Source: Planctomycetota bacterium (GTDB lineage Bacteria; Planctomycetota; UBA11346). From it: a DNA stretch of 64,000 nt. The stretch covers positions 64,001 to 128,000 of the forward strand of contig JBBRLJ010000004.1 of the NCBI GenBank assembly GCA_038231435.1, given 5' to 3'. Shown here piece by piece: positions 21,652 through 52,467 of this stretch. Both the position numbers and the translations under genes were made by a program. Each line of letters starts with the position of its first letter. The first letter of the stretch is position 1. The notes beneath the pieces were generated by a model. It was not told where the DNA came from. It did no database searches and saw only the letters and a program-made list of their open reading frames with translations.

Positions 21652-21739
21652 GAAGACGGAAGTCTGAAGATCGAAGACCGGACACGTTTTCCGGCGTTCA
21701 CGTGCGTCTTGGCTCTCTCCTCTTCCGTCTTCCGTCTTC
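21652..21739. repeat. inverted heptamer array element 1 (GAAG arm then CTTC arm)
   Basis: GAAGACG GAAGTCT GAAGATC GAAGACC ... CCTCTTC CGTCTTC CGTCTTC between convergent atpC and transglutaminase gene. Confidence 0.85.
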
Positions 21740-21760
21740 TCCGCTGTCCCCTGTCCAGCC

Positions 21761-23269
21761 TTACGGCAACGTCTCGATGTCCTTGCCCATCACCGAGGCG
21801 AGGTTCTTGAGCATGACCGCGGGGGTGGATTCGTCGTCCTTGCCGGTGGTCGAGGCGAGTTTGATGTAGCAGCTGCGGGCCATGCCCGGATAGGCACTGT
21901 CGAGATGGGCCCAGTGGCCGTCGACGTAGGCGCTGTTCCAGGCGTGGCCGACCCAGCCGCCATGGTCGGCCGAGAATACCATGCCTACCTCGATACGCGC
22001 GGGGATGCCGGCGATGCGCAGCGCGGCACACAGCAGCGCCGCGTGCTCGGTGCAGTCGCCATGGCGCGAACGGAAGGTCGCCAGCGCCGAACCATCGCCG
22101 ACGCTCAGGTCGCGCTTGAGGTAGGCACGCACCGCCAAGCGCAGATCCTCGGCCACGTCCGCCTGCGTCACCGCATCGGCCGGCGAGACCGCGCGCGCCT
22201 GGGGCGCTGAGGTCACGTCATCCACCCACTGGCGCATCGCGGGATCGTCGATCTCGAGGTGCGGCTCGGCCTTCAGGTACTCCTCGCGCTCGGCGAGCGC
22301 GCTGGGGACCGCTTCCGAGACCACGGTGAGCACGCCCTCATCCAGATGCTGGAACTCGTCCTCGGCGGCGATCCCGCCTTCCGGCAAGCGGTAGCGGTTC
22401 ACGGCGGCCGGCTTCGGTGCCGGACCCGTGGCGGTCACCAGGCCGGTGGCGGCCATGTCGGCCCCGAGCAGCGAGACCGGGCCGTCGGACGGCTTCAGCT
22501 CGAGCTTGAAGATCGCCAGGTTCATCGTCATCCCGAGCAGGTCGCCCTTGGGCGAGAGCAGCATGCGCATGGGGATGGGCATCACGTCGGTGACCAGGTC
22601 GAAGGCCCGTCCGCCGACAGCGTCGACGCCCGAGTAGGTCGCGGTGCTGGTCACGATCATCACACGATCGTTAACCAGGCCGACCGAGACGAAGCTCTGC
22701 GCCTCGCCGGCCTTGAGGTCGGCCCGGCACAACAGCTCCTGGCTGCGGCGATCGCCGACCAGCTCGGTGCCGGCAGACAGCGGCAGATCGAAGTCGGTCT
22801 TGCGTCCGAGGCGATGCAGGGTCGCGATCACGTGGCGGGCATCGCCTGACGCATCGCCTGACTTCTCGACCCGGCCCGAGGCGCTCGATCGCGTGCCGCT
22901 CTCTTCATGGTCGAAGCGGAAGGAGGTGATGTTGCCGGCGGCGCCTTCCTCGAACACCTGCGAATCGCGCACCTCGAGGCGGGTGTCGGCTTCGGCCGGC
23001 GCTTTCTTCTCGGGCTTCTTCTTGGCGGGATCATCGAGGTTGCGCTTGATCACCAGCGCCATGTCGGTCGAGGTGGTGCGCGTACCGTCGGCGTGGCGCG
23101 TACACACCTCGTGCAGCGATACCGCCGGATGGCCATTGAGCTCGCCGACGAACCATTGGTCGGTCTCAAGCTGATCGCCTCCCGAGGGTGCTTCCTGGGA
23201 TGAGGCCGTAGTGGCGAGCACGACGACCGAGAGCACGGCGAGGACGGTGGAGAACAGGATTCGGCGCAT
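21761..23269 (-). CDS. exported transglutaminase-like domain protein
   Basis: Signal peptide; GDCTEHA..LRIAGIPAR, GHAW, W..LD catalytic Cys-His-Asp pattern. Confidence 0.88.
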   Translation of the reverse strand: MRRILFSTVLAVLSVVVLATTASSQEAPSGGDQLETDQWFVGELNGHPAVSLHEVCTRHADGTRTTSTDMALVIKRNLDDPAKKKPEKKAPAEADTRLEVRDSQVFEEGAAGNITSFRFDHEESGTRSSASGRVEKSGDASGDARHVIATLHRLGRKTDFDLPLSAGTELVGDRRSQELLCRADLKAGEAQSFVSVGLVNDRVMIVTSTATYSGVDAVGGRAFDLVTDVMPIPMRMLLSPKGDLLGMTMNLAIFKLELKPSDGPVSLLGADMAATGLVTATGPAPKPAAVNRYRLPEGGIAAEDEFQHLDEGVLTVVSEAVPSALAEREEYLKAEPHLEIDDPAMRQWVDDVTSAPQARAVSPADAVTQADVAEDLRLAVRAYLKRDLSVGDGSALATFRSRHGDCTEHAALLCAALRIAGIPARIEVGMVFSADHGGWVGHAWNSAYVDGHWAHLDSAYPGMARSCYIKLASTTGKDDESTPAVMLKNLASVMGKDIETLP

Positions 23270-23275
23270 GCCACG

Positions 23276-23281
23276 AGGCTA
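23276..23281 (-). promoter_or_regulatory. putative -10 box (TAGCCT, extended TGn) of a leaderless transcript
   Basis: TGCTAGCCT, 6 nt, then ATG 23269; no SD. Confidence 0.55.
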
Positions 23282-23311
23282 GCACCGAGGCCGGCAAGGA
23301 AAGGGATGGGG

Positions 23312-23333
23312 CCGAGGATCCAGGGATCCTCGG
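23312..23333. terminator. hairpin between rnhA and transglutaminase gene
   Basis: CCGAGGATC-CAGG-GATCCTCGG inverted repeat; weak U-tract. Confidence 0.4.
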
Positions 23334-23403
23334 TGTTTCTACGCGCCTAGCGTCTCGCGACTCGACGTCTGTTCGCGGCTCTGCGTCTGGCCCGCTGCTG
23401 CCG

Positions 23404-23895
23404 TCACCCCGTCCACATCACCCGTTTCTCGTAGCTGGGGTGCTCGCCCCTGGCGATCGCATCCATGGCCTGGTTCGCCAAGGCATCGACGCGTTCGTTG
23501 CCGGGATTGCCGTCGTGCCCACGCACCCACTGCCACGCGATGCGGTGACCCGCGAGCAGACGATCGAGCTCCTGCAGGAGCTCGACGTTCTTGAGCGGGC
23601 CCTCCTTGCGCTTCCACCCCCGCGCCTTCCAGCCGGGAATCCATTCGCTCGCGGACTTGATCACGTACTGGCTGTCGCTGTGGATGAGCGCCGAGGTGCC
23701 GGGCTTCTTCAGCGAGCGGATCGCCATGATGGCGCCCATCAGCTCCATCTTGTTGTTGGTGGTCTCAGACTCACCACCGCAGCGCTCGAGCGCCTCGCCG
23801 GTCTTGGGATTGATGATCAGACACGCCCATGCGCCCGGCCCGGGATTGCCCCGGCAACCGCCGTCGGAGTACGCGATGACTTCGTGAGCGCTCAC
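23404..23895 (-). CDS. rnhA: ribonuclease HI
   Basis: YSDGGCRGNPGPG, TTNNKMEL, SDSQYV, WVRGH.G..GNERVD.LA. Confidence 0.97.
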   Translation of the reverse strand: MSAHEVIAYSDGGCRGNPGPGAWACLIINPKTGEALERCGGESETTNNKMELMGAIMAIRSLKKPGTSALIHSDSQYVIKSASEWIPGWKARGWKRKEGPLKNVELLQELDRLLAGHRIAWQWVRGHDGNPGNERVDALANQAMDAIARGEHPSYEKRVMWTG

Positions 23896-23902
23896 GGGCG
23901 CG

Positions 23903-23908
23903 ACGCTA
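23903..23908 (-). promoter_or_regulatory. putative -10 box (TAGCGT) of leaderless rnhA
   Basis: TAGCGT, 7 nt, then GTG 23895; TTGCCA lies 15 nt upstream of the -10. Confidence 0.5.
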
Positions 23909-23956
23909 CCCGCGGCCCGGGCGTGGCAAGCCCGAGCGCGCTCCGATCACGCGATC

Positions 23957-25132: not shown

Positions 25133-25142
25133 GGCGGGAGTG

Positions 25143-25314
25143 GATGTCGGTCGTCGGTTGTCGGGCTTCAGTCTGCGATCTTCGGTCTTCAGTCTTCGAT
25201 CTTCGATTGTCGAACTTCTAGCCTTCGCACGTTCCCTGCATCTCGAAGCACGTGGAGAAAGCAGGAGAAGAGGGAAGATGGAAGACCGAAGACGGAAGAT
25301 CGAAGAGGAAGACA
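25143..25314. repeat. inverted heptamer array element 2 (CTTC arm then GAAG arm)
   Basis: About 11 units with 7-bp period 25143-25219 (GTTGTCG GGCTTCA ... ATCTTCG GTCTTCA GTCTTCG ATCTTCG) and 7 units GAAGAGG GAAGATG GAAGACC GAAGACG GAAGATC GAAGAG GAAGACA at 25267-25314. Confidence 0.9.
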
Positions 25315-25339
25315 GCTGTCGTGAATCCCCAGGATCTCT

Positions 25340-26818
25340 TCACCACTTCGTGACCAGCTGGATGTCCTGGTAGAACGCCTTCAGTATTTCCGGCGCGAGA
25401 TACTTCTCGTTCGCCATCTCCCAGGCGCTGATCTGGCTCATGCCCACGCCATGGCCGAAGCCGATGGAGGTGATCTGGTAGGTGATGGTGCGCTTGCCTT
25501 CGCTGGATTCGATGCGCTTGGGGCTGTCGGCGCTCCACAGCGTCGAGCGCAGCTGATTGGGGCCGACCAGCATGCGGAAGCTATGGGCGGGGATCTCGAT
25601 GGGATCAGCGGACAGGGTATGATCGACGAGCACGGTCTCGACGCGGTTCGAGCGCTTGTCGCGCCGGCCGACGCGCAGGTTGTGGATGTAGCCGACGTGC
25701 TTGCCTTCGGCCTCGAGCAGCTTCGACAGCTTGAGCTGCAGGTCGCTGGGCTTGATCACCGTGGTGTACGTCCAGTGGGATCCCATGTAGCCCAGGCCCT
25801 CGGCGCCGAGCTGGCAGAAGCGATCCGGATGCGCGGTCATCACCAGCCCGAGCGGCACGCGGCCGAAGACGTCGCGCGAGTTTGGCAGGACGTTGTCGAT
25901 CGACTCGGTGTAGCCGCCGGAACTCGCGCAGAACAGCGGGGCGAAGGGATTGGTATGGTCCACCATGGTGACGACGCCGCGCGTCTCGCGAACCGCGCCG
26001 CGCACCGCGGCGTTGCCATTGCCGGTGCCGCGGTACTCCTGGTCGTCGGCGGTATCCATGACGTCATATTCGACGCGCGCATTGCGCGCGAGCGACTGGT
26101 GGGCGAAGGCGTAGCCGCGGCTGGCGATGGCCTGCGCCTTGAGCGCCTCGAGCGGATAGCTCGGCGACATCTCGACCGAGATGACGCCCTCGATGTAGGA
26201 TTCCATCGGCAAGCAGTTGATGGCCTCGATATCCTTCGCGCTGTGCCAGATCACCTCGAGCGAACCGCGGTAGCGGCCACCGGGAAGGGCGAACACCGCG
26301 TCGCGGTCTGCGGCCTCGAAGAGCGTCGGATCGCGCCGGGCCGGGTTGCTGGCCTGGGCGTTCGCCTCGGCGGTGGCCGTGGTGCTCGTCACCACCTCGG
26401 GCACGGTGCGGCTGGGTTGGACGCGCAGCGACGACACCGCCCAGGTGTAATCCTTGCCCCATTCCTTGCTGCCGAGCATCAGCCCGTCCTTGGTGTCGGA
26501 TTGGATGCGCAACGTGGAGCCAGCGTGCAGGGTGAGATGGAGCTGCGGGTCGTCGGGATTGTACGGCGTCACCACGTCGACGGTCTGCAGGATCGCGACG
26601 TCGAGCTTGTCGTAGGTGCGGATGGGATCCGGCGGTTGGCGGTTCAGCAGCAGCACGCGCACGCCCGGATCCTGGCCGGTGCCCGTGGCCAGCGGACCGC
26701 GCCCGTCGCGCGACGGGTCATCGATCAGGCCGCGCGTCAGGCTGATGCTGAAATACGCGAGCAGGCCGAGCAGGACCACCACCCGCACGATCTGGTTCAG
26801 CAAATCCCCGGACAACAT
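25340..26818 (-). CDS. SpoIID/LytB domain protein (peptidoglycan lytic transglycosylase)
   Basis: YRG.L, IN.LPMESY..GV..VEM, EALKAQAIASR, DQEYRG, FCASSGG.TE, GFGHGVGMSQ; N-terminal TM. Confidence 0.92.
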   Translation of the reverse strand: MLSGDLLNQIVRVVVLLGLLAYFSISLTRGLIDDPSRDGRGPLATGTGQDPGVRVLLLNRQPPDPIRTYDKLDVAILQTVDVVTPYNPDDPQLHLTLHAGSTLRIQSDTKDGLMLGSKEWGKDYTWAVSSLRVQPSRTVPEVVTSTTATAEANAQASNPARRDPTLFEAADRDAVFALPGGRYRGSLEVIWHSAKDIEAINCLPMESYIEGVISVEMSPSYPLEALKAQAIASRGYAFAHQSLARNARVEYDVMDTADDQEYRGTGNGNAAVRGAVRETRGVVTMVDHTNPFAPLFCASSGGYTESIDNVLPNSRDVFGRVPLGLVMTAHPDRFCQLGAEGLGYMGSHWTYTTVIKPSDLQLKLSKLLEAEGKHVGYIHNLRVGRRDKRSNRVETVLVDHTLSADPIEIPAHSFRMLVGPNQLRSTLWSADSPKRIESSEGKRTITYQITSIGFGHGVGMSQISAWEMANEKYLAPEILKAFYQDIQLVTKW

Positions 26819-26825
26819 CGTCGGA

Positions 26826-26831
26826 AAGGTA
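26826..26831 (-). promoter_or_regulatory. putative -10 box (TACCTT) of a leaderless transcript
   Basis: TACCTT, 7 nt, then ATG 26818. Confidence 0.45.
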
Positions 26832-26890
26832 TCGCGCTATGCCCCGCGCGCCAGCGGGCGGGGCGGGGCGTCGCACGCGACCGCAGCCGC

Positions 26891-27853: not shown

Positions 27854-27923
27854 GGGGACTCCTGGGCCGGGCTTATAGCCGAGGGCGGGGGAAGGAGAAG
27901 TTGGAAGGGGGAAAGGGGGGAAA

Positions 27924-28101
27924 GGGGAAGACAGAAGATGGAAGACGGAAGAACGAAGACCGGAAGACGCGACAGCATAGTCGGATGCGTCAGGCGGGAG
28001 CAGGAACCTCGCATGACGAAAACCTCCGACCAACCGTCTGGTCTCGTCTCTCTTCGATCTTCCATCTTCCATCTTCCCGTCCTCTGCCTTCTGTCTTCCC
28101 C
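27924..28101. repeat. inverted heptamer array element 3 (GAAG arm then CTTC arm)
   Basis: GAAGACA GAAGATG GAAGACG GAAGAAC GAAGACC ... GATCTTC CATCTTC CATCTTC ... TGCCTTC TGTCTTC; perfect outer 14-bp IR GGGGAAGACAGAAG / CTTCTGTCTTCCCC. Confidence 0.9.
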
Positions 28102-28116
28102 CTCCCCCTCCGCAGC

Positions 28117-28122
28117 TACCCT
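28117..28122 (+). promoter_or_regulatory. putative -10 box (TACCCT) of leaderless rnz
   Basis: TACCCT, 6 nt, then GTG 28129. Confidence 0.55.
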
Positions 28123-28128
28123 GTTTTC

Positions 28129-29158: not shown

Positions 29159-29269
29159 CGGCTTCAAACTTCAATCTTCAGACTTCAATCTTCGGTCTTC
29201 CATCTTCCGTCTTCTGTATCCGTGCCACGGAGACGGCAGGAGAAGACGGAAGACCGAAGACCGAAGACT
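29159..29269. repeat. inverted heptamer array element 4 (CTTC arm then GAAG arm)
   Basis: 8 units CGGCTTC AAACTTC AATCTTC AGACTTC AATCTTC GGTCTTC CATCTTC CGTCTTC, spacer, then GAAGACG GAAGACC GAAGACC GAAGACT. Confidence 0.9.
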
Positions 29270-35266: not shown

Positions 35267-35390
35267 GGTTGTCGGGCTTCCGTCTTCGATCTTCGATCTT
35301 CCGTCTTCCCTCTTCGATCTCCGTCTCTCCAGCACAGCTGGCGAATGACGAGGGAGACCGGAGAAGATGGAAGACGGAAGACTGAAGAGC
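35267..35390. repeat. inverted heptamer array element 5 (CTTC arm then GAAG arm)
   Basis: GGTTGTC GGGCTTC CGTCTTC GATCTTC GATCTTC CGTCTTC CCTCTTC GATCTCC ... GAAGATG GAAGACG GAAGACT GAAGAGC. Confidence 0.9.
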
Positions 35391-35402: not shown

Positions 35403-36926
35403 TCACGGCCACGATGGGACGATCGCCACGCCGGGATAGAAGCGGGCGAGGATGGCTTCGGCTTGATCGCCGTCGGTGGCCATCTTCCACGCGCTGACCT
35501 GGGACAGGCCGACGCCGTGGCCGAAACCGCGGCCGGCGAGCACCAGTGTCCCGCCGGTGGCGCCCTTGCCGGCGGCCATCACGCAGCGGTCCCACCAGGT
35601 CGAACGCACCAGGCCCGGTCCGACGGCCATGCGGAAATCCGCGGCCGACAGCAGCGTGGTGAATTCCTTCTTTCCGATGCGATGGCGGATGGAGACGGTG
35701 GCGACCCGGCCCGAATCGGCGAAGCGCTGGCCGGGCTTGACCTCGAGCACCGTGCCGAAGGTCAGCCGCGATTCGGGATGCTCGCGTGTCCAATCGGCGA
35801 GTCCGCTGGTGATGTCCGCCAACGGCACGTTGACCTTCCATTGCCAGTGCGTCTCGAGCATGCGCAGCGCAGCGGCGCCGCCGCGTGCGGACGGATCGTC
35901 GACCACCGGCATCGCCGGCGTCGCGCTGCCACCGTCGGCGCCGCGTAGTTCTGGCCACAGGTTCGCGGCCGACTCGGTGCGCCCGCCCGAGCAGGCGTGG
36001 AACAGAGCCGGCACCGGCGAGCCGTGATACTCGAGCACCCTGCCGCGCGTGGCGTCGAGCGCCTGGTGGACTCCGGCATAGCGTTTCGCCGGACAGCCGC
36101 CGTAGGCCATGTCCACGCTGTAGTGCCAATGCAGCTGCCAGGCCGAGGCGGCACGATCGAGGTAATGCGCCGAGGCGTAGCTGCGCGCCGCGACCGCCTG
36201 GGCCTTGAGCGCTTCGAGCGGCCAACTCGGCACCATCTCGGTCGGCAGCACGCCGGCCAGGTAGGTCTCCATCGGTACCAGTTCGATCAGCTGGACGCGT
36301 CCGGTACGATCGAGGTGCAGGACCGGGCTGCCCGAGAAGCGCAGGCTCTGCGGCTTGCCGATCGGCGGAGTCAGCCGCGCGGCGAAGCGCGCGCCATCGG
36401 ATCCCGGCGCCGCATCGAGCGCGAGGGTGATGTCGGCAGCGCAGGCGACGCCATTGATGCTGATCCCTCGTCCATCCGAGGATGGTTGCGCCACGTAGAT
36501 CCCGGGCGAGACGGGCGTGGATCCGAGATGACCCGACGCGAGCAGCGTGAATTCGACGCTGGAGCCTGATTGCAGCAGCACGCGGATGATCGGCTCGGTG
36601 GCGATCGACGCGCGCGGCGCCATCGGCCGCGAGCCTTGCGGCGCTGACGGGAGTGGATCGGGAGCCGGAACCGCGCTCTGGGCACCCGCCGGAGGCGCCA
36701 CCTGGTACGGCGCCTCGACGCTGTCGGATGGCTCGCCATGCTTACCGCGCGACGCGCACGCCACCGGAGACAGCATGGCCAACGCCATGAACGTGAACGC
36801 GATTGCCGGGGGCAGCCACAGGCGGCGGTCCGCGAACACGCCGCGCGCCTCGCCCACTATTCTTCCCAGGACCCTGCCGAGGTTCCTGCCGAGGTCTCCG
36901 ATCACCTGCCGCGCGCCGCTGGACAT
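35403..36926 (-). CDS. SpoIID/LytB domain protein (second paralog)
   Basis: METYLAGVLPTEM, EALKAQAVAARSY, FHACSGGRTE, GRGFGHGVGLSQ, ILARFYPG. Confidence 0.92.
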   Translation of the reverse strand: MSSGARQVIGDLGRNLGRVLGRIVGEARGVFADRRLWLPPAIAFTFMALAMLSPVACASRGKHGEPSDSVEAPYQVAPPAGAQSAVPAPDPLPSAPQGSRPMAPRASIATEPIIRVLLQSGSSVEFTLLASGHLGSTPVSPGIYVAQPSSDGRGISINGVACAADITLALDAAPGSDGARFAARLTPPIGKPQSLRFSGSPVLHLDRTGRVQLIELVPMETYLAGVLPTEMVPSWPLEALKAQAVAARSYASAHYLDRAASAWQLHWHYSVDMAYGGCPAKRYAGVHQALDATRGRVLEYHGSPVPALFHACSGGRTESAANLWPELRGADGGSATPAMPVVDDPSARGGAAALRMLETHWQWKVNVPLADITSGLADWTREHPESRLTFGTVLEVKPGQRFADSGRVATVSIRHRIGKKEFTTLLSAADFRMAVGPGLVRSTWWDRCVMAAGKGATGGTLVLAGRGFGHGVGLSQVSAWKMATDGDQAEAILARFYPGVAIVPSWP

Positions 36927-37868: not shown

Positions 37869-37936
37869 GGGGGGGGGGGGGGGAATTGGGAAGGGAAGAC
37901 GGAAGACGGAAGAGTGAAGAGTGAAGACTGAAGACC
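37869..37936 (+). repeat. heptamer array element 6 (solo GAAG arm) preceded by G15 run
   Basis: G15 at 37869-37883, then GAAGACG GAAGACG GAAGAGT GAAGAGT GAAGACT GAAGACC at 37895-37936. Confidence 0.85.
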
Positions 37937-43548: not shown

Positions 43549-44087
43549 CCAGCCAGACGGCCGACGACGGGACCTGGGCCTATCAATGGCCAGCGGGCGC
43601 CCGCCTGGCGCGCGACTTCGCCACGATCGTCAGCTGCGTCGGCCTGGCGGTGTGCGATCTGGGCTGCGGAGCCGGTGCGCTCGGCCGCGCCGCGCTCGCC
43701 GGCGGAGCGCGGTCGGTGACCTTCGCCGACGGCAATCCCGCTGCGCTCGCGTCGGTACACGCGGCCCTGGGCGCGATGGCTGACGACGCGCGCATCGAAT
43801 TCCATCCCCACCGCTGGGGCGAGCCGCTGCCGGGAGCACCGTACGACCTCATCCTCGGCGGCGATATCCTCTACCGCCCCGAATGTTTCGCCGACCTGCT
43901 CACCTCGATCGCCCATGGCTTAGGCGAACATGGACGATGCCTGCTGTCCGACCCGCGCAAGGTCCTGGAGCCCGAGTTGCCGATGTTCGCCGAGGAACGG
44001 GCGTTGACGTGGACGACCAGGAGGATGAAGGATTATACGTTGGTGGGGATAGCCAAGAAGATGGGAGAAGAGAAGACTGAAGGCTGA
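43545..44087 (+). CDS. class I SAM-dependent methyltransferase (Methyltransf_16-like)
   Basis: WPAG..LA, DLGCGAG, FADG, WG, DLILGGDILY; ATGA overlap start 43545. Confidence 0.85.
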   Translation: MTSQTADDGTWAYQWPAGARLARDFATIVSCVGLAVCDLGCGAGALGRAALAGGARSVTFADGNPAALASVHAALGAMADDARIEFHPHRWGEPLPGAPYDLILGGDILYRPECFADLLTSIAHGLGEHGRCLLSDPRKVLEPELPMFAEERALTWTTRRMKDYTLVGIAKKMGEEKTEG

Positions 44088-44175
44088 AGGCTGAAGGCTG
44101 AAGGCTGAAGACTGAAGCATCTGCCCCCTCTTTCATCTTCCATCTTCTATCTTCTATCTTCTATCTTCAGTCTTC
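44072..44175. repeat. inverted heptamer array element 7 (GAAG arm then CTTC arm), overlapping both convergent gene ends
   Basis: GAAGACT (GAAGGCT)4 GAAGACT GAAGCAT ... (CATCTTC)2 (TATCTTC)3 AGTCTTC; outer IR GAAGACTGAAG / CTTCAGTCTTC. Confidence 0.92.
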
Positions 44176-45158
44176 CCTTTTCCCGCCTTCTCCCTCTCCC
44201 TGACCCGTTCCAAAACCTCCTCCATCCGTGGCGTCCGCACCCCGAGGACCTTCGCCCTCCTCACCGGCTCCGCGAACATCGCCTCGGTCTCCATCGGCTC
44301 CCCCGCACGCCAATCCAGTAACGTGCTGGTGAGGTACGGCCCCATGCTCTCGGTGCGCGCAATCATCTCGCGCACCCAGTCATCACCGATGTGCGCGGCC
44401 GAACCGGCGGCCGACAGGTCCGCGTTCGCCACCGCTACCACCTCGCGCATGAGCTCCTCGAGCAGTGCGCGGCTCGCGGGATCGCGCATGATCTCCTCGG
44501 TCGACGAGCCCTGCTCGCCGAGGGCGACGCTCAGACCGTTGTAGGGGAAGTTCCAGACCAGCTTGCGCCAGCGCGCTTCCAGCAGGCAGGCGACGCCGTG
44601 GTGGGCGATGCCGGCCAAGTCGAGCAGCCCGGTAAGCTCGGCGACACGCTCGGGGCGATCCCGGAAATGCCCGACCAGCACTTTGCCATGTGCTTGATGA
44701 TGGATGCTACCATCTGCGCGGCGACGCACGCACACGTGGGCCACGGCGCCGAACACGCGCTCGGGATCGCACCACGACGCGAGCGCTTCTTCAACGCCCA
44801 AGCCGTTGCACATCGCGACGATGCGCGTGGATGCGCCGAGCATCGGATCGAGCAGCGCGCGCGCCGCCGGTAGGGCCGTGGTCTTCAGCGCCAGCAGCAC
44901 CCAATCGGGAGCGCCGCCTCGCGCGCATTCGGCGGGAGCGAGGCAGGCGTGGAATGCGCCCGGAGACAGGTGCAGCGACGCTCCGTCGCGCGCGCGCGCG
45001 ATCTCGGGAGTCGGGGTGGTGTCGATGCGGATGCCGTCGGCGCTGATGCGCGCATGATCGCGCCTGAGCAGGAAACGCAGATCCAGCCCCGCGAGCGCGA
45101 ACTGCGCGCCGTAGAACAGCCCGATCGCGCCGCTGCCGACCACCGCCATCGAGGCCAT
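44154..45158 (-). CDS. panE: 2-dehydropantoate 2-reductase (ketopantoate reductase)
   Basis: GSGAIG, LKTT, NGLG.E, W.KL.WN..YNGL, TSTLLD...G...E. Confidence 0.88.
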   Translation of the reverse strand: MASMAVVGSGAIGLFYGAQFALAGLDLRFLLRRDHARISADGIRIDTTPTPEIARARDGASLHLSPGAFHACLAPAECARGGAPDWVLLALKTTALPAARALLDPMLGASTRIVAMCNGLGVEEALASWCDPERVFGAVAHVCVRRRADGSIHHQAHGKVLVGHFRDRPERVAELTGLLDLAGIAHHGVACLLEARWRKLVWNFPYNGLSVALGEQGSSTEEIMRDPASRALLEELMREVVAVANADLSAAGSAAHIGDDWVREMIARTESMGPYLTSTLLDWRAGEPMETEAMFAEPVRRAKVLGVRTPRMEEVLERVREREKAGKGKTEDRR

Positions 45159-45342: not shown

Positions 45343-48216
45343 ATGAACGTGCTCGCACCGCTGACCCACATCGCCGCCGGCTTCTACGTGCTCGCGGTGT
45401 TCCTGCTCGCCATCTATGGCGTTCACAGCGTGTGGCTGCTGCGCCTGTTCCTCAAGCACCGCCACGTCGCGAGCGCGCAGGAGCGCCTCGAGGCGGCGAC
45501 GCCACTGCCGGATGACGCCGACCTGCCGCACATCCTGGTGCAGCTGCCGGTGTTCAACGAACGCGACGTGGTCGAGCGCCTGGTAGAGGCCGTTGGCCGC
45601 CTCGACTGGCCGCTCGACCGCCTGCACATCCAGCTGCTCGACGACAGCACCGACGACAGCGTCGATATCGGCAGCGCGGCGTGCGAACGCCTACGAGCGC
45701 GCGGCCTCGACGCGCACAGCCTGCACCGCATCGATCGGCGCGGCTTCAAGGCCGGGGCGCTCACCGCGGGCATGCGCGACGACGAGTCTCCGTTCATCGC
45801 CATCTTCGACGCCGACTTCGTGCCCGAGAGCGACTTCCTGAAGAAGGCGATCAAGCCACTGCTCGCTGATCCGGATCTCGCGCTGGTTCAGGGACGCTGG
45901 GAACATCTGAACCGGCACGCCAACCTCCTGACCTCGGCGCAGTCGCTCGGCATCGATGGGCATTTCGCCATCGAGCAGGGAGCCCGCGCGTGGTCGGGCC
46001 TGGCGATGAACTTCAATGGCACCTGCGGGCTATGGCGGCGATGCGCGATCGTCGCCGCCGGCGGCTGGGAGCACGACACGCTGACCGAGGACATGGACCT
46101 CAGCTACCGCGCCCAGCTCAAGGGCTGGAAGTGCACGTACCGCACCGGACTGGCCGTGCCGGGCGAGGTGCCCGCGACGGTGAGCGCGTGGCGCGGCCAG
46201 CAGTTCCGCTGGGCCAAGGGATCGATCCAGACGGCGATGAAGCTGCTGCCGTCGGTGTGGCGTTCGCGCTGGAGCCTGCACGCCAAGCTCGCCGCGACGC
46301 TGCACATGACCCACTACCTGGTGCATCCGCTGATCCTGACGAGCCTGTTCTGTGCGCCGCTGACCCTGCTGCTGATCAATCATCTGCCGATCTGGATGCT
46401 GATGCTCGGGCTGTGCGGATTCCTGGTCGGCGCGGCGTCGCCGCTCACCGTCTACACGATCAGCCAGTTCGTGCTCTACGGCCGGCAAGGTTGGCGGAAC
46501 CTGCGCCATCTGCCGGCGCTCGCGGCCCTGGGAACCGGCATCGCCGTGTCGAATTCGACCGCGGTGTGGCAAGCCCTACGCGGCAAGCAGTCAGCCTTCG
46601 TGCGCACGCCCAAGCAGGGCTCGGTGGGCTCCAGCAGGCCCACCGGCAGCTATCGCGCGCGGCCGGCGAGCGGCATGGCCGAGCTGTTCTGCTCGTGCTG
46701 GGCGGCGCTCGGACTGGCGATCGGCTGCACCGGCGCGCACACCTGGATCACCCCGCTGCTCGGGCTCTACCTGTCGGGCTTCGCGTGGATGGCTTACTAC
46801 AGCATGCGCGAGCGCCAGGCTTTCGACCGCCATGCCGCTCGTGCCGACGCGCCCAGCGGTCCCTCGCCGATGCCGTGGCTCGTTCCCACCGGCATCCTGC
46901 TGATGGCGGGCTACGTCGCCCTCGGCCTCCTGCCCGGCTCGTGGCGTTCGTCGCCCGCATCGTTCGCCGGCATCGCGCTGGCGCTCGGTGGAGTCTATCT
47001 GGTTGCAGCGCGGGCCGTGCGCAAGCTCAACGGCGGTGGACCGACACTCGCCTGGATCGTGGTCGTCGCCGTGGCCATCCGCGTCGCCAGCCTGGGCATC
47101 GAGATGTCGGACGACCTCAACCGCTACGTGCTCGAAGGCCGGCAGATCGCGGTCGGGCAGAATCCGTACCTGATAAGCCCACTGGATCCGGCGGCGCGCG
47201 CGCTCGGCGACACCAAGTTCCCTGGCAGCGTGCTGCTCGCCGTGAACCATCAGGACTGGACCTGCATCTACCCGCCGATGACTCTCGGTTACGAGGCGCT
47301 GGTCACCTCGCTGTCGGTGCAGCCGTTCGCGTTCAAGCTCGCCGGGATGACCTGCGAGCTCGCCGCGCTCGGCCTCGTGCTCGCGCTGCTCGCGCGCCTG
47401 CGCATGGCGCCGTCGCTGCTGCTGCTCGCGGCGTGGAATCCGGTCGGTCCGATCTTCCTCTGCGGCGAGGGCCACAACGACGCGGCCATGGTGCTGTTGC
47501 TCGCGCTCGGGCTCTACCTGTCATCGGGCAACCATCATCGCCGCGGCATCATCGCCATCAGCCTGGCCGCGCTCGCCAAGCCGTTCGCGGTCATCGCTCT
47601 GCTGCCCATGCTGCTGACCCGCGGTTGGGCGTGGTGGCTGCTGCCGCCCGCCATCGCCGCGGTGGTGTACCTGCCGTTCCTGGATGCCGGCAAGCACCTG
47701 TTCTCGACCATGGGCCACTTCGGCTCGGCGCTGCACTTCCACGGCGCGCTCGAACCCTTCGCGCGCATGACACTCAGTCAGATCGTCGCCACCGACTCCG
47801 TCCAGACAGCGGTGGTGTGCGCGTTGGCCGCAGCCTGGATCGGCGGATCGCTGGTGATCCTCGCGCGCCATCGCCGCTCCCCCGACGCCCAGCCGCTCGA
47901 GCTCACGGTGCGCCTGCTGGCGATGCTCCTGGTGTGTCTGCCGACGCTGCACGCGTGGTACCTCGCCCCCCTAGCCCTGCTGCTGCCGTTCACGCGCTCG
48001 TGGGGACTGACGCTGTGGGTGGCGATGGCTCCGGTGTACTGGCTGCACGCCCTCGCCAACACCCAGCCCACGGACTTCCTCGAGATCCCCTGGGTCACGG
48101 CGCTCGCCCACCTGCCCGCGCTCGCCCTGCTGGCGTACGAGGCGTTCGGGCGACCTGATCCCCGTCGCGACGCGGACACCGCCGAGGACATCGTCCCCGG
48201 CACCCAGCCCGTCTGA
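45343..48216 (+). CDS. fused processive GT2 (cellulose-synthase-like) + GT-C (GT87/DUF2029-like) glycosyltransferase
   Basis: QLPVFNE, DDSTD, GFKAGAL, DADF, TEDMD, QQFRW; second half SDDLNRY..EGR..GQNPY, YPP, AWNP, GHND, KP with many TM helices; start ATG 45343. Confidence 0.85.
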   Translation: MNVLAPLTHIAAGFYVLAVFLLAIYGVHSVWLLRLFLKHRHVASAQERLEAATPLPDDADLPHILVQLPVFNERDVVERLVEAVGRLDWPLDRLHIQLLDDSTDDSVDIGSAACERLRARGLDAHSLHRIDRRGFKAGALTAGMRDDESPFIAIFDADFVPESDFLKKAIKPLLADPDLALVQGRWEHLNRHANLLTSAQSLGIDGHFAIEQGARAWSGLAMNFNGTCGLWRRCAIVAAGGWEHDTLTEDMDLSYRAQLKGWKCTYRTGLAVPGEVPATVSAWRGQQFRWAKGSIQTAMKLLPSVWRSRWSLHAKLAATLHMTHYLVHPLILTSLFCAPLTLLLINHLPIWMLMLGLCGFLVGAASPLTVYTISQFVLYGRQGWRNLRHLPALAALGTGIAVSNSTAVWQALRGKQSAFVRTPKQGSVGSSRPTGSYRARPASGMAELFCSCWAALGLAIGCTGAHTWITPLLGLYLSGFAWMAYYSMRERQAFDRHAARADAPSGPSPMPWLVPTGILLMAGYVALGLLPGSWRSSPASFAGIALALGGVYLVAARAVRKLNGGGPTLAWIVVVAVAIRVASLGIEMSDDLNRYVLEGRQIAVGQNPYLISPLDPAARALGDTKFPGSVLLAVNHQDWTCIYPPMTLGYEALVTSLSVQPFAFKLAGMTCELAALGLVLALLARLRMAPSLLLLAAWNPVGPIFLCGEGHNDAAMVLLLALGLYLSSGNHHRRGIIAISLAALAKPFAVIALLPMLLTRGWAWWLLPPAIAAVVYLPFLDAGKHLFSTMGHFGSALHFHGALEPFARMTLSQIVATDSVQTAVVCALAAAWIGGSLVILARHRRSPDAQPLELTVRLLAMLLVCLPTLHAWYLAPLALLLPFTRSWGLTLWVAMAPVYWLHALANTQPTDFLEIPWVTALAHLPALALLAYEAFGRPDPRRDADTAEDIVPGTQPV

Positions 48217-48219
48217 CCG

Positions 48220-48864
48220 ATGTCGCCGACGCTGCTGGTCTTCGCCAAGCCCCCGGTGCTCGGCCAGGTGAAGACCCGCCTCGCGCATGCACTGGGAGAC
48301 GCCAGCGCCCTCGCCGTGTATCGGTGCTTGTTGGAAGTCACCGCGCGCGCGATCGCCACCTGGCCAGGCCCGATACGGGTGCTGACTGCCGGAGACATGG
48401 CGGCCTTCGCCGGGACGCCGCTCGCGTCATTCCCCTCGCGTCCCCAGTCTGACGGCGGGCTCGGCGCACGCTTGGCCGCCGGATTCCGCGCGGTACCGGG
48501 CCCGGCGCTGGCCATCGGCACCGACTGCCCCGGGCTCGCCCCAGACCATCTACGCCGGCTGGCGGCCGCCCTGGAGCGGCATCCCGCGGTCTTCGGCCCC
48601 GCCCACGACGGCGGATATTGGGGCGTCGCCGTCGGGGATGCTCGCTGCATCCCGGTCTGCTTTGCCGACGACCTGCCATGGTCGCGTCCGTCGCTGCTCG
48701 CGGAAACGATGGCGCGGCTGGCCGGGAACGGCATCGTCGCGGGGATGACCGACACGCTCGCCGATCTGGACGACGCCGAGGATCTCGCCTCTGCCGAACG
48801 CCATGGGTTCGTCTGGCGCGTCACGCCTGGCTCCGCGGAACGCTCGAACGAAGGATCGCCATGA
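48220..48864 (+). CDS. TIGR04282/DUF2064 family glycosyltransferase-like (CofC-like fold) protein
   Basis: FAKPP..GQVKTRL, Q..GGLGARL, IGTDCP, GPAHDGGYW, PWS, LADLD..EDL. Confidence 0.9.
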   Translation: MSPTLLVFAKPPVLGQVKTRLAHALGDASALAVYRCLLEVTARAIATWPGPIRVLTAGDMAAFAGTPLASFPSRPQSDGGLGARLAAGFRAVPGPALAIGTDCPGLAPDHLRRLAAALERHPAVFGPAHDGGYWGVAVGDARCIPVCFADDLPWSRPSLLAETMARLAGNGIVAGMTDTLADLDDAEDLASAERHGFVWRVTPGSAERSNEGSP

Positions 48865-49406
48865 ATCGTACCGTCAAGCTGGTGATCTCCGGAGCTCTCG
48901 GCCTCGCGGTGGGACTGGCCTGGGGCTTCACCCGCAAGCCGATCGTCCCGCCGCTGAGCCTGCCGAGCCAGCCATCCGCGCCGATGGCTCCGACGCACTC
49001 GCCTGCCGCGGGCGTCTCAAGCACTGGAGCCGGCGCGAGCGCGCTCGCCACCGCCACCACCGCGCAGGACCTCGAGCGCCTGCTCGTCGGACATCCAGGA
49101 ACCGCGCTCCTCGATTTCCACGCGGAGTGGTGCAAGCCCTGCAAGGAACTCGAACCACGGCTGGTCGAGCTCGCCGCCAAGCGCCCCGATCTGCTGGTGA
49201 TCTCGATTGACGTGATGGCGGCCGAGGAGCTCGCCAAGGCGTACAACGCCGACCTGCTGCCACTGCTGGTGCGCATGGAAGGTGGCAAGGAGACCGCGCG
49301 CCAGAGCGGCGCCCCGAGCCTCGATGATCTCACGCGCTGGCTGGTACAGCCGACTCCGTCCGTTCCCCAGCCATCTCCCCAGCCATCTCCCCAGTTGAAG
49401 CCCTGA
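48861..49406 (+). CDS. membrane-anchored thioredoxin family protein
   Basis: N-terminal TM, DFHAEWCKPC, LLP; ATGA overlap start 48861. Confidence 0.88.
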   Translation: MNRTVKLVISGALGLAVGLAWGFTRKPIVPPLSLPSQPSAPMAPTHSPAAGVSSTGAGASALATATTAQDLERLLVGHPGTALLDFHAEWCKPCKELEPRLVELAAKRPDLLVISIDVMAAEELAKAYNADLLPLLVRMEGGKETARQSGAPSLDDLTRWLVQPTPSVPQPSPQPSPQLKP

Positions 49407-49458
49407 GCCAAACCGCCCGCGTCAACGCTGCGTATACATCGGGAACCGCGGAGGGAAC

Positions 49459-51711
49459 ATGAGCAACGTCCTGGCCGCATACGCGCACTGGCTGCACCTG
49501 CGCTGGCCGGCTGGCCGCGTCGAGCACTTGCCGATGGTCGGCGAACGCGGCGACACGCGTCTCGAGGGCGTCTACGTGGTCGGTGACCTGGCCGGCGTGC
49601 CGCTGCTGAAATTCGCGCTCGATACCGGCGCCAAGGCGGCCAAGCGCTGCGCGCAGGAGCTGCGCGGGTCGCAGAGCGGAGCGCCGGATGGAGATCAGAA
49701 GCGCGCGTCAGGAGCCGCGATGGAGGGCCTGCTGGATGTCGCCATCATCGGTGCTGGCGTCGCCGGCATGGCGGCGGCGATCGAGTGCGCGAAGCAGGGC
49801 CTGCGCTTCGCCGTCCTCGAATCGGCGAAGCCGTTCGCCACCATCGCCAATTTTCCCGCCGGCAAGCCGATCTTCACCTATCCCCGGCGCATGACGCCAG
49901 ACGGGCACCTGCAGGTCGGCGCGGACGTGAAGGAAGCCCTGATCGCTGAACTCGAGCGCCAAGTGGCGGGTTTCGACATCCCCGTCACCACCGCGGTCTT
50001 CGAACGCATCGAGCGCCGTGGGTCGGCGCTGGCGGTGATTGGCACGGGTAGCGAACCGCTGCTCGCGCGTCGCGTGATCGTCGCGATCGGACGCAGTGGA
50101 AACTTCCGCCGACTCGGCGTGGCCGGAGAGGATCTCCATCAGGTCTCGAACCGCCTGCACGATCCGAAGGTCCATGCCGGAGAGGACGTGGTCGTCGTCG
50201 GCGGTGGCGACAGCGCGCTCGAGGCGGCCATCGCGCTGTGCACAGCCGGCGCCAAGGTCACGCTGTCCTACCGCGGCGCCGAGTTCAGCCGCCCCAAACC
50301 CGAGAACGCCGAGGCCATCGCGCGCCTCGCCACCGCGAGCACGCCGGGCCTGACACTGAAGCTCGGCAGCACGGTGACGAGGATCTCCGCGGGCTCGGTC
50401 GAGCTCAGCGCCAAGGGCGGCCCTCCCGAGACGGTGCCGGCCGCGGCGGTGTATGTGCTGATCGGACGCGAGCCGCCGCTCGACTTCTTCCGCAAGAGCG
50501 GCCTGGCCATTCGTGGCGAGACAGGTTGGAGCGGCATCCTCGGGCTGGTGCTCTTCGCCACCTTCGCCTGCCTGCTCTATGGCTGGAAGAGCCTCGGGTG
50601 GGCGAACCACGCGGTGGAACCCACGCGCTGGGTGAAGGCCCTGGATCCGCTGGTGGCAAGCGAACGCAATCCGCTGCATTGGGCGGTGAGCTCGGCGCAC
50701 AATCCATCGTTCTGGGTCACGCTGCTCTACACCTCGGTGGTGGTCGGCTTCGGTATCGCGCGCATCCGCCGGCGCAGGACGCCGTATGTGACCGCACAGA
50801 CCATCTCGCTGATGGCGTTCCAATGCCTGCCGCTGTTCCTGCTGCCCGAGATCATCCTGCCGTGGATGAACGCCTGCGGATGGATCCCGCACGCGATGGT
50901 GGCGAATCTCTTCCCCGACGGTTCGTGGTGGCGTGCCTACGGCTTCATCCTCGCCTGGCCGCTGATGGCCTGGAACCTGTTCACCGATCAGCCGATGTGG
51001 TGGTGGCTGGGGATCAGCATCGCCCAGACCCTGGTGATCATCCCACTGATCGTCTGGAAATGGGGCAAGGGCGCGTACTGCGGCTGGATCTGCTCGTGCG
51101 GTGCGTTGGCCGAAACCCTCGGCGACACACAGCGCGAGAAGATGCCGCACGGCCCCGGTTGGAACAAGGTCGACCTCGTCGGCCAGGGCGTGCTCGCGAT
51201 CGCCGTGATCATCTTGGGGGTGCACGTGTCCCACTGGATCTGGCCGCAGGTGCCGTCGCTCACCAGCTTCATGAGCGGCTGGCTACGTCCGGCCTGGCAC
51301 ATCGGCGTCGACTATGTCCTCGCCGGCGCGCTGGGTGTGGGTCTGTACTTCCACATGTCCGGCCGCGTGTGGTGCCGCTTCGCCTGCCCGCTCGCGGCGC
51401 TGATGCACATCTACGCCCGCTTCTCGAAGTTCCGCATCGTCCCGGACAAGAAGAAGTGCATCTCGTGCAACGCCTGCACCACCGCCTGTCACCAGGGCAT
51501 CGACGTGATGAACTTCGCCAACAAGGGCGCGCCGATGGCGGATCCCGAATGCGTGCGCTGCTCGGCCTGCGTGCAGGTGTGTCCGACCGGCGTGCTGCAG
51601 TTCGGCGAGGTCGACCGTCAGGGCCGCGTACTGAAACTCGATGCGCTGCCCGCGAGCCCGGTGCTGATGCGCGAAGCCCGGGACCAGCCGCTGGAGTCGA
51701 TGAAGTCGTGA
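49459..51711 (+). CDS. FAD/NAD(P)H oxidoreductase fused to membrane polyferredoxin (NapH/MauN-like) domain
   Basis: GVYVVGD, IIGAGVAG, VVGGGDSA, CGWICSCG, CRFACP, CISCNACTTAC, CVRCSACVQVCP; GGAGG RBS. Confidence 0.88.
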   Translation: MSNVLAAYAHWLHLRWPAGRVEHLPMVGERGDTRLEGVYVVGDLAGVPLLKFALDTGAKAAKRCAQELRGSQSGAPDGDQKRASGAAMEGLLDVAIIGAGVAGMAAAIECAKQGLRFAVLESAKPFATIANFPAGKPIFTYPRRMTPDGHLQVGADVKEALIAELERQVAGFDIPVTTAVFERIERRGSALAVIGTGSEPLLARRVIVAIGRSGNFRRLGVAGEDLHQVSNRLHDPKVHAGEDVVVVGGGDSALEAAIALCTAGAKVTLSYRGAEFSRPKPENAEAIARLATASTPGLTLKLGSTVTRISAGSVELSAKGGPPETVPAAAVYVLIGREPPLDFFRKSGLAIRGETGWSGILGLVLFATFACLLYGWKSLGWANHAVEPTRWVKALDPLVASERNPLHWAVSSAHNPSFWVTLLYTSVVVGFGIARIRRRRTPYVTAQTISLMAFQCLPLFLLPEIILPWMNACGWIPHAMVANLFPDGSWWRAYGFILAWPLMAWNLFTDQPMWWWLGISIAQTLVIIPLIVWKWGKGAYCGWICSCGALAETLGDTQREKMPHGPGWNKVDLVGQGVLAIAVIILGVHVSHWIWPQVPSLTSFMSGWLRPAWHIGVDYVLAGALGVGLYFHMSGRVWCRFACPLAALMHIYARFSKFRIVPDKKKCISCNACTTACHQGIDVMNFANKGAPMADPECVRCSACVQVCPTGVLQFGEVDRQGRVLKLDALPASPVLMREARDQPLESMKS

Positions 51712-52424
51712 GCCTCGGCTCCGGCAGCGGCGACAACGGCTGCGGTGGAAGCGGCGAATGCGGTGGAAGCAGGGCGGCCCGGGTGAGCGTCATCATCCCG
51801 ACACGCGACGAAGAACGCCTGCTGCCGGGCCTGCTCGACCGCCTCGCCATCCTCGGCGGCTGGCACGAGGTGATCGTCGCTGACGGAGGCTCGCGCGACC
51901 GCACCCGCGAGATCGCGCAGGCCCATTCCATCGTCACGCGCCTGGTCGCGGGCCGTGACCGCCACGAGCAGTTGAACGCCGCGCTGCGCTCCGCCACCGG
52001 CGATATCGTCCTGCTCATCGGAGCCGATCTTCGACCCGGTCGCGGCACCCTCGCACGCCTGCGCGCGACCCGCGCCCCCGCCGGCTGCCTCGCCCTGCGT
52101 CACGCGCGGCGCGCCTGGATCTACCGCTGGGGCGACGCGTTCGCCCGCCTGCGCGCCCGCTGGACCCGCGGCGCCTACCTCGACCAAGCCCCCTTCTTCG
52201 CCCGCACCAAGGCCATCGCCGCCGGCGGTTTCCCCGCGCACGGAACCTACGACACCAGCGCCCTTGGACGTCAGCTCACCGGACGGAAGTCGTTCGCCAT
52301 CCTGCCCGCGCCAGTGGTGGTGTCGTGCCGAGCGTGGAGCACCCCCGTTCGCACGTTCGCGCGGTATCAGGGGAAGCGGCTGCGGTATCTGATGCAGGGG
52401 GATGGGCGAGAGGCGAGAGGCTAG
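51708..52424 (+). CDS. GT2 family glycosyltransferase (TIGR04283-like)
   Basis: VSVIIPTRDE, EVIVADGGS.D.T, QLN, GDIVLL.GAD, YLDQ..F, GGFP, SCRAW; GTGA overlap start 51708 (alternative GTG 51783). Confidence 0.8.
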   Translation: MSLGSGSGDNGCGGSGECGGSRAARVSVIIPTRDEERLLPGLLDRLAILGGWHEVIVADGGSRDRTREIAQAHSIVTRLVAGRDRHEQLNAALRSATGDIVLLIGADLRPGRGTLARLRATRAPAGCLALRHARRAWIYRWGDAFARLRARWTRGAYLDQAPFFARTKAIAAGGFPAHGTYDTSALGRQLTGRKSFAILPAPVVVSCRAWSTPVRTFARYQGKRLRYLMQGDGREARG

Positions 52425-52467
52425 AGGCAGGAGAAGATGGACGACGGAAGTTCGAAGAGGGAAGAGC
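52405..52467 (+). repeat. heptamer array element 8 (solo arm) overlapping GT2 stop codon
   Basis: Continuous 7-bp period: GGCGAGA GGCGAGA GGCTAGA GGCAGGA GAAGATG GACGACG GAAGTTC GAAGAGG GAAGAGC. Confidence 0.75.

Follow-up and report, generated by a model that had tools for sequence, protein, structure and literature searches.

Heptamer Arrays at Eight Gene Junctions of a Planctomycetota Genome: Probable Gene-Less Forms of a Four-Helix-Bundle Insert

Eight gene junctions in a 64,000-nt stretch of a Planctomycetota bacterium genome (assembly GCA_038231435.1, contig JBBRLJ010000004.1, positions 64,001 to 128,000, forward strand; the whole stretch is called the window below) carry degenerate tandem heptamers with a GAAG core, which reads CTTC in the inverted arms. 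We found that these eight loci are real, non-random and not an assembly artefact, and we regard them as likely to belong, as gene-less members, to a small and selfish kind of intergenic insert. Its spread is probably short-range and aided by a four-helix-bundle (4HB) protein of the PF05635 family. The arrays lie between genes and are tied to 4HB genes by adjacency, by shared repeat words and by local density; the family link of the eight loci to 4HB cassettes found elsewhere in the genome is, taken by itself, very likely. Leader-bearing loci form a deletion series, presence is patchy among relatives, and word similarity decays with distance. Heptamer repeats have no accepted cause (PMC4692102), and this genome ties them to PF05635, a widespread family without a function.

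Array Loci in the Window

All eight loci listed in an initial annotation of the window, between positions 21652 and 52467, were recovered, and they are numbered 1 to 8 here in that order. They contain all 14 strict arrays of the window, eight of the form GAAGNNN and six of the form NNNCTTC with at least three units each, as compared with an expectation per 64 kb of 0.02 and 0.07 arrays when the window was simulated with Markov models of order 3 and order 5, respectively; no array of at least three units lies outside the eight loci in the 64-kb window. Of the 70 strict units, 59 have A at position 5 and 58 have C or T at position 6; position 7 is free. The polarity described by the initial annotation also held: GAAG comes first at loci 1, 3 and 7 and CTTC first at loci 2, 4 and 5, all six being inverted pairs around unrelated spacers, and loci 6 and 8 are single arms. 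The spacers between strict arrays are 13-87 nt long and unique, with no significant match elsewhere in the genome. RNA folding, a check which that annotation had proposed, predicted folds on both strands for all six paired loci (z -3.0 to -8.3) and no stable fold for the single-arm loci 6 and 8, and no specific pairing of the two coding flanks was seen (true -38.7 vs. permuted -38.8 kcal/mol). By our own gene calls, loci 1, 4, 7 and 8 lie at convergent junctions, loci 2, 5 and 6 at tandem ones, and locus 3 at a divergent one.

An assembly artefact had been raised as an alternative. Contigs from other samples of the same study (X2 and X3) reproduce loci 1, 2, 4 and 5 and most of locus 3 without any letter change, and one contig of a related strain from another study (X5) overlaps locus 4 with 25 differing letters and 15 gaps, the stretch compared with these contigs excluding loci 7 and 8.

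Distribution across the Genome

The genome (G000; 5.2 Mb in 108 contigs, 67% GC, 88% complete) was scanned with gene calls of our own, which cover 87% of its DNA. It holds 100 strict GAAG-core arrays in 74 loci, with 96 of the 100 intergenic, in the genome-wide scan that the initial annotation had proposed; a 5.2-Mb simulation trained on half of the genome gave none. All 100 have period 7, and each other period from 5 to 12 gave 0-26 GAAG-core arrays. A word-independent detector found 246 period-7 arrays with many different words, of which 204 are intergenic. Array-bearing junctions amount to 164 of 3287, and they show no bias (p 0.34) among divergent (26/582), convergent (34/549) and tandem (104/2156) junctions. 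This lack of orientation bias, together with the finding of no terminator-like site at loci 1-6, to which the terminator scan extended, supports the earlier view of a dispersed element that is not simply a terminator. Array junctions are clustered, with a neighbour within 10 kb in 60% of cases (44% expected), and have a G-rich left edge and a C-rich right edge regardless of gene orientation. At 43 two-arm loci the arms are inverted copies of each other (0.097 vs. 0.002 for direct copies). The CTTC-first polarity was seen at 3 of the 74 strict GAAG loci, all of them in the window, and a looser census counted eight CTTC-first pairs vs. 23 of the other polarity.

Base composition is altered next to the arrays. 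Fourfold sites in the last 30 nt of neighbouring genes have a C frequency of 0.31 vs. 0.43, and where genes abut an array, the fourfold sites of their last 60 nt show a shift from C to G that was significant genome-wide and weaker away from the array. Nine orthologue comparisons, made with six window genes, did not show the shift (12 changes to G, 15 to C), and it is partly due to gene tails that are encoded by the element. As a separate observation, host DNA beside a 4HB cassette in a same-genus genome, G002 (L079:1376-1420), looks homologous to the empty junction in a second one, G001 (L081), and has lost most C on the strand leading into the cassette.

Four-Helix-Bundle Cassettes and Their Leader

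The initial annotation had expected a four-helix-bundle cargo elsewhere in the genome, and this was found. There are 17 PF05635 matches, and all four that were tested pass TIGR02436. The modelled protein matches Xcc0516 (2GSC, pentameric) with a template-modelling (TM) score of 0.92 and Avd (4DWL) with 0.77, and also matches BT_0352. Arrays of period 7 or 8 lie within 400 nt upstream of 12 of 16 scorable 4HB genes, compared with 189 of 3923 genes in general (75% vs. 5%). The complete form, present at 11 places in the genome, consists of a repeat arm, a hairpin leader, one or two 4HB genes and an inverted arm; the arms have the GAAG core at the C25, C6 and C34 cassettes, and just one tRNA occurs among the 11 loci. 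Twelve of the 17 genes make up six convergent pairs of unlike genes, each gene behind its own leader (C13:113860-114831, C25:14412-15392, C28:44833-45877, and on C34, C50 and C62), and such pairs are present too in the genomes G189, G173 and G019.

The leader is a conserved element of about 140 nt ahead of each 4HB gene, with no Rfam match; nothing in the window matched Rfam either. In nine family genomes, both leader anchors were found at 58 of 63 4HB loci with sufficient upstream DNA. The 57 distinct copies, in which at least one anchor is misplaced, share a fold into a single long hairpin, with compensatory changes. In 53 of the 57, the Shine-Dalgarno sequence is predicted to be paired, and the sequence it pairs with co-varies with it (7.5 complementary bases vs. 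5.7 when permuted). A covariance model matched two of six family genomes and none of 144 others, but it was trained on this genome alone and scored 19 candidates per genome, so that this is not proof of absence. On its outward strand, the leader has [T/G]AnnnT 14 nt from a TTGAC box in 55 of 57 copies, pointing away from the gene into the array. As a candidate outward promoter this was set aside as unproven, because host promoters peak at spacers of 15-17 nt vs. 14 in the leader. Genome-wide, promoter-like TTG...TAnnnT pairs ahead of genes have their spacer peak at 15 nt (99 pairs), followed by 16 (66) and 17 (62), the usual length being 17.

Leader-bearing loci form a deletion series, every member of which is accompanied by arrays. 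Two leaders with two convergent genes occur at six loci, one of them cut by a contig end; two leaders with a single gene at C6 and C47; two leaders without genes at C28:36485-36721; fused leaders at C14; and a truncated leader at C25:46384. CTTC-first arm pairs, as at loci 2, 4 and 5, recur at C25 and C6, where they form outer modules of cassettes that bear leaders. In an alignment of 32 4HB proteins, eight columns are invariant and seven of these are polar (Q34, R37, S41, N45, E48, S68 and E71, in 32 of 32 sequences). A contig scan of genomes with a 4HB query gave three distant loci, of which one was used. G032, a genome of the same phylum, has 52 PF05635 matches, many with internal stops; at the one locus inspected there (L067), no array of period 6-11 lies upstream of the 4HB gene.

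Shared Words and Local Density

Gene-less arrays are tied to cassettes by position and by word. Where a cassette or leader lies no more than 10 kb away, 20 of 108 junctions hold them, compared with 125 of 2151 elsewhere (p 9e-6), which is three times denser; the words of such arrays also recur in the cassette close by (p 0.011). The similarity of words between array loci falls with distance, from 0.102 below 5 kb through 0.071 at 5-15 kb and 0.057 at 15-50 kb to 0.027 beyond 50 kb, the background between contigs being 0.025; pairs closer than 15 kb reach 0.083, vs. at most 0.052 in 2000 permutations. Cassette arms of the same genome contain 39% of the locus-2 words, and those of nine other genomes contain no more than 8%. 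When the locus-2 arrays of ten genomes were compared with cassette words, the score was 0.20 for the own genome vs. 0.055 for other genomes (p 0.002). Across 24 family genomes, which are incomplete and related and hence not independent, and of which 11-100 kb each were sampled, array density correlated with the 4HB count (rho 0.51, p 0.011), and at least two arrays per 100 kb were found in 9 of 14 genomes with a 4HB match vs. 2 of 10 without.

Protein and word were also compared, after exclusion of six misclassed loci. In 25 leaderless cassettes, protein identity tracked word similarity across genera, weakly (rho 0.21, p 0.001). The leader-bearing cassette is the only type seen in this genome. 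A quick tree, in which 47 of 109 forks stayed open, was used for none of the claims.

Presence in Relatives and the spoIID-tgt Junction

Presence and absence differ between relatives, as the initial annotation had anticipated. In both same-genus genomes, G001 and G002, the junction of locus 2 is short and array-free. That of locus 3 is array-free in G001 and, in G002, carries another word upstream of the second gene, at a contig end. Around locus 4 the gene order differs in both genomes, and no array follows the metallo-beta-lactamase-fold (MBL-fold) gene there. The junction of locus 6 holds an inverted pair of a different word in G001, and the region of locus 8 holds an inverted pair of another word beside clpP in G001 and a different palindromic repeat in G002. 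In both genomes, the region that is syntenic with the window includes a 4HB cassette. The G001 cassette follows the esterase gene. The G002 cassette lies between rnhA and tgt and consists of a G-rich flank, arm, leader, gene, inverted arm and C-rich flank; the rnhA-tgt junction is short and plain, without an array, in G000 and G001. Empty sites in relatives, looked at for target-site duplications, were too diverged to align.

The spoIID-tgt junction, at which locus 2 lies, is a family-wide hot spot for such arrays. Among 30 family genomes, the junction after spoIID holds arrays in 14, another palindromic repeat in 1, is cut in 1 and plain in 14; these calls were made by eye, ten were confirmed by the detector, and the 14 include one degenerate case and one with tgt off the contig. 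The words are lineage-specific, with five genera involved, and filled junctions are blocks of 100-200 nt, compared with 0-90 nt when empty. In G174 and G170, the arms at the locus-2 junction are near-identical around a visibly diverged spacer.

Proposed Mechanism

These data suggest a mechanism which, taken as a whole, we give an even chance of being correct. The insert would sit just beyond gene ends, be transcribed with the host mRNA and be looped out via its paired arms, as the predicted folding and the precedent of 23S rRNA intervening sequences (PMC4990558) would lead one to expect. The arm hairpin would leave the insert nearly harmless in an operon, and it might be cut by RNase III, a gene for which is present in the genome, as in those intervening sequences. 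A 4HB ring would probably bind tandem GAAG-type cores, about one unit per subunit, and act near its own gene, so that arm-bounded units, with or without the gene, would be copied to nearby junctions by a step at the DNA level. A short-range step of this kind is favoured by the distance decay of words and the array density near cassettes, and because no reverse transcriptase was found; with repeat dialects common to copies that lie close together, the insert's spread along the chromosome is probably short-range. The gene could then be lost by recombination between inverted leaders or arms, and slippage would edit each arm thereafter. Arm-only copies that never carried a gene fit the data equally well as remnants that lost their cargo. 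These findings offer two handles. One is the word dialects, which are lost over about 50 kb and reach their highest density around the 4HB cassettes that survive, pointing to short-range spread; the other is the spoIID-tgt junction, where five genera have arms of different words and never a gene.

A more radical version, in which a new kind of mobile DNA is driven by the 115-residue 4HB ring itself, we consider quite unlikely. The polar invariant residues of the ring would recognise the tandem 4-base cores and cut or re-join nucleic acid near the ring's own gene, and hairpins would be seeded junction by junction to give chromosome neighbourhoods with their own repeat dialect. A catalytic 4HB is conceivable because seven of the eight invariant columns are polar. 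If true, this protein would be among the smallest known mobilisers and would account for the long-noted excess of heptamers in bacteria.

Several results weigh against gene-less inserts that spread with 4HB help. The window is without a leader (best matches on the contig E 5.8 and 10), and no 4HB gene lies on its 143-kb contig. No array-filled spoIID junction (0/14) holds a gene, and the junction census counts 157 gene-less junctions vs. 7 that bear a leader. The initial annotation had named missing shared termini as a finding that would speak against its proposal, and genome-wide no shared termini were found; the longest common strings, of 14-27 nt, are repeat words. Gene-less spacers match 4HB DNA no more than controls do (4/157 vs. 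12/800), and 0 of 10 locus-2 spacers beat all of their own shuffles against the 4HB profile. The word match between cassettes and their neighbours is driven mostly by one contig, C25, and 5 of the 10 genomes scored zero in the own-genome word test. G015 and G005 (79% and 78% complete) have arrays without a 4HB match, and G019, with 13 4HB matches, has no array in the 100 kb sampled. Leader-bearing cassettes (60) show no correlation of word with protein (rho 0.02), and that seen in leaderless cassettes may be plain co-inheritance. Finally, no mobilising enzyme was found at the cassettes.

The search for such enzymes covered several families. PF00078 reverse transcriptases had no match in four 4HB-rich genomes (G000, G002, G013 and G020; 71-88% complete), and GxxExxY (PF13366) and DUF559 had none in this genome. 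Y1_Tnp gave one weak match (E 6e-5, C28:23259) away from the array cassettes, and neither the GxxExxY nor the HUH/Y1 cargo suggested by the initial annotation was borne out. Seven tyrosine recombinase matches all lie outside cassettes, the nearest about 2.6 kb from the C17 cassette. Other cargo between arms was rejected: only 4HB genes were found there, and other double-flanked small genes look by eye like ordinary host genes that lie in array-dense neighbourhoods. Two further candidates were discarded, namely 4HB peptide stubs in spacers of G177 and G023, which were no better than shuffles, and a leader-proximal stub motif, which was not enriched in gene-less spacers (1.04 vs. 1.00 per kb). 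No conserved palindrome was found in the spacers of array loci.

As to the proposal of cargo-lost remnants, the genome has a deletion series elsewhere, and the spacers in the window retain neither gene nor leader remnants. Since termini are not shared and the spacers have no traceable cargo, we infer cargo loss at the eight loci rather than observe it. The interpretation in the initial annotation as a whole is partly supported.

Alternative Explanations

The main rival is growth in place under selection. Heptamer runs would be built by slippage at permissive junctions and then be retained by selection because they serve a host or 4HB factor as binding sites or as hairpins for mRNA processing; 4HB genes would be flanked by arrays solely through self-regulation, and nothing would be mobile. 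We consider this unlikely, even though it would readily explain why one junction carries different words in five genera, and likewise loci 6 and 8 in G001, why the arms in G174 and G170 outlast their spacer, why termini are lacking and spacers unique, and why the G-rich lead-in and C-rich lead-out extend into neighbouring genes. Independent origins, however, would not give words shared by neighbours and fading over 50 kb, and array density near cassettes goes unexplained. A whole cassette in G002 that is missing at the same junction in G000 and G001, blocks of 100-200 nt where an empty junction has 0-90 nt, and the lack of orientation bias also speak against growth in place. An invariant-phase test was unable to separate selection from slippage. 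Lineage-specific slippage or repair bias, with hairpins arising via template switching, would suffice if the repeats were neutral and their tie to 4HB genes incidental. Arms that are homogenised internally and range from 3 to 23 units, the indels over locus 4 in the related strain, the arrays in two genomes without a 4HB match, and changes concentrated at the same phases, as slippage also gives, all fit such neutral repeats. They are nevertheless very unlikely, given that period 7 exceeds all other periods, that upstream arrays occur at 75% of 4HB genes vs. 5% of all genes, and that 8 of 10 sampled genomes without 4HB have fewer than two arrays per 100 kb.

Repeat-adding synthesis, an option in the initial annotation, would take a telomerase-like form here, with an enzyme adding units from a leader RNA template and 4HB as an Avd-like helper. 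The Avd fold of 4HB, the conserved and structured leader and the long, nearly perfect sequence of some arms agree with it, but no reverse transcriptase was matched in the four genomes, leaderless cassettes are armed too, and the leader holds no word template: the array word scores 5.07 in its own leader vs. 5.11 in other leaders of the same genome. The leader as word template was accordingly rejected, its signal being significant across genomes and null when permuted within genomes. We regard writing of this kind as highly improbable. That the loci are intrinsic terminators or attenuator hairpins of the flanking genes is extremely unlikely. Six loci fold stably on both strands and four of eight lie at convergent junctions, as terminators might, but the scan of loci 1-6 found no terminator-like site, junction type has no influence (p 0.34), orthologous junctions do without arrays, and single arms do not fold. 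A gene-less insert related to the 4HB cassettes remains our preferred reading of the eight loci.

Sequence and Setting of the Individual Loci

The six paired loci are given without a strand. Locus 1 (21652..21739), between convergent atpC and transglutaminase-like genes, has a GAAG arm of 4 units, a 39-nt spacer and a CTTC arm of 3 units (predicted fold z -3.6/-3.5 on the two strands). Locus 2 (25143..25314), between the tandem spoIID-like gene and tgt, is composed of outer GGTTGTC-type units, a CTTC arm, a spacer and a GAAG arm (z -3.4/-3.1). Locus 5 (35267..35390), downstream of a second spoIID-like gene, has outer GGTTGGT/GGTTGTC units, a CTTC arm, a 47-nt spacer and a GAAG arm (z -3.5/-3.0), and its left arm opens with the same word run as locus 2, as read from the sequence. 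The two SpoIID-domain genes are distant paralogues (25340-26803 and 35403-36926), and a CTTC-first array pair follows each. Locus 3 (27924..28101), between divergent acetyl-xylan-esterase and MBL-fold genes, consists of a G-rich flank, a GAAG arm, an 87-nt spacer, a CTTC arm and a C-rich flank (z -4.4/-8.3); a metagenome scan with the MBL-fold protein returned distant relatives only (29-43% identity) and was not used. Locus 4 (29159..29269), between convergent genes, has a CTTC arm of 8 units, a 27-nt spacer and a GAAG arm of 4 units (z -4.9/-4.7).

Locus 6 (37895..37936, + strand), at a tandem junction, is a single GAAG arm of 6 units after a long G-rich tract. Long single-arm heptamer arrays without G-rich flanks were noticed in G015 (L159, L160 and L162), which has no 4HB match (79% complete). 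Locus 7 (44072..44175) has a GAAG arm of 7 units, a 13-nt spacer and a CTTC arm of 6 units (z -4.7/-3.8), and the stops of both flanking genes lie inside the arms (44087 on the + strand, 44154 on the - strand). The E/R/K-rich C-terminal tail of ApbA (44154-44215, - strand) is encoded by the purine-rich flank and arm of this locus and is unlike the G002 orthologue; apbA does not lie at the corresponding junction in G001 or G002. Locus 8 (52405..52467, + strand) is a degenerate single purine arm, with units from GGCGAGA to GAAGAGG, between a glycosyltransferase gene, whose stop (52424) is within the arm, and convergent clpP. Beside it, a short GC-rich palindrome (52499-52535) looks by eye like the junction repeats of G002 and G188, which resemble repetitive extragenic palindromic (REP) sequences.

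Two further features of the window were noted. A 1531-aa open reading frame (ORF) at 7044-11639 (- strand) joins a Ser/Thr kinase domain to a C-terminal domain like those of the formylglycine-generating enzyme (FGE)-sulfatase type. The stretch 45343-52424 holds, in one run, genes for a glycosyltransferase, a DUF2064 protein, a flavin/Fe-S oxidoreductase and a TIGR04283-like glycosyltransferase (below the family cut-off), adjoined by a methyltransferase-like gene; we take this run to be reminiscent of arsenosugar gene clusters.

Comparison with Known Systems

The short tandemly repeated repetitive (STRR) sequences of cyanobacteria are tandem heptamer repeats. They are cited in PMC4692102, where the passages concerned describe GGGAATC in Xanthomonas and GGGGA(C/T)T in Nostoc as intergenic heptamers, often in close inverted pairs and without a link to insertion sequences (IS), state that 83% of those in Xanthomonas were kept between the two species of that genus compared, and find heptamer repeats over-represented between genes in many bacteria. 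The arrays studied here differ in that their core is GAAG and lacks G-tracts, in that each genome has many words, grouped in local dialects, and in a patchy presence between species; a quadruplex-type G-tract unit is absent, with position 5 mostly A, and the flanks are G-rich. TAACTGA in Beggiatoaceae (PMC4679880) and the heptanucleotide elements of Geobacter metallireducens (PMC2700814) are, in the parts of these papers concerned, likewise abundant, mostly intergenic and composed of related variant units. The Beggiatoa sets are described there as nearly all direct and biased to positions just before start codons (PMC4679880), whereas inverted pairs are common here and orientation bias is absent. 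The relevant passages of these three papers (PMC4692102, PMC4679880 and PMC2700814) do not link heptamer repeats to 4HB or PF05635, and PMC4679880 makes no mention of four-helix, S23 or intervening sequences. A full-text search, which covered few subscription papers, found no paper that describes the heptamer-armed 4HB cassette as a class.

Non-autonomous intergenic hairpins in many copies, clustered and patchy between relatives, are known as REP doublets forming hairpins (REPINs), bacterial interspersed mosaic elements (BIMEs) and MITEs (miniature transposable elements with inverted repeats). Unlike these, the present loci have no conserved unit of 20-40 nt or terminal repeat, their arms being degenerate tandem heptamers. 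They also differ from REP/REPIN systems with a REP-associated tyrosine transposase (RAYT) in having no linked transposase, the one weak Y1 match lying away from array cassettes, and from MITEs and other IS-derived elements in that no terminal inverted repeats are common to all copies and only repeat words are shared. Avd of diversity-generating retroelements binds RNA. Its homology to PF05635 is noted in the part of PMC10053308 concerned, and the 4HB model has the same fold as Avd (PDB 4DWL; TM 0.77, 9% identity), but, unlike a diversity-generating retroelement, this genome (88% complete) has no PF00078 reverse transcriptase.

The closest comparison is with S23p-type intervening sequences (IVSs) of 23S rRNA. 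In the passages of PMC4990558 concerned, a PF05635/TIGR02436 ORF lies in the loop of a stem formed by terminal inverted repeats, tandem heptamers of variable number lie beside the ORF, and the ORF is prone to decay. The eight loci are not themselves S23p-type IVSs, because they are not in rRNA and have no ORF: a PF05635 ORF is present at 11 other places in the genome and at none of the eight. They differ from such IVSs in lying between protein genes, at well over 100 places and mostly without an ORF, and in this genome the full forms have a hairpin leader (about 140 nt) and, frequently, a convergent pair of ORFs. They resemble S23p-type IVSs in that the ends of six of the eight loci are predicted to pair into a long stem and in that the host genome encodes RNase III, excision being predicted here by analogy. 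The findings are best filed as gene-less forms of a heptamer-armed four-helix-bundle insert, and the best reading, drawn by analogy, is that this insert would work like an S23p-type rRNA intervening sequence that has moved into mRNA junctions.

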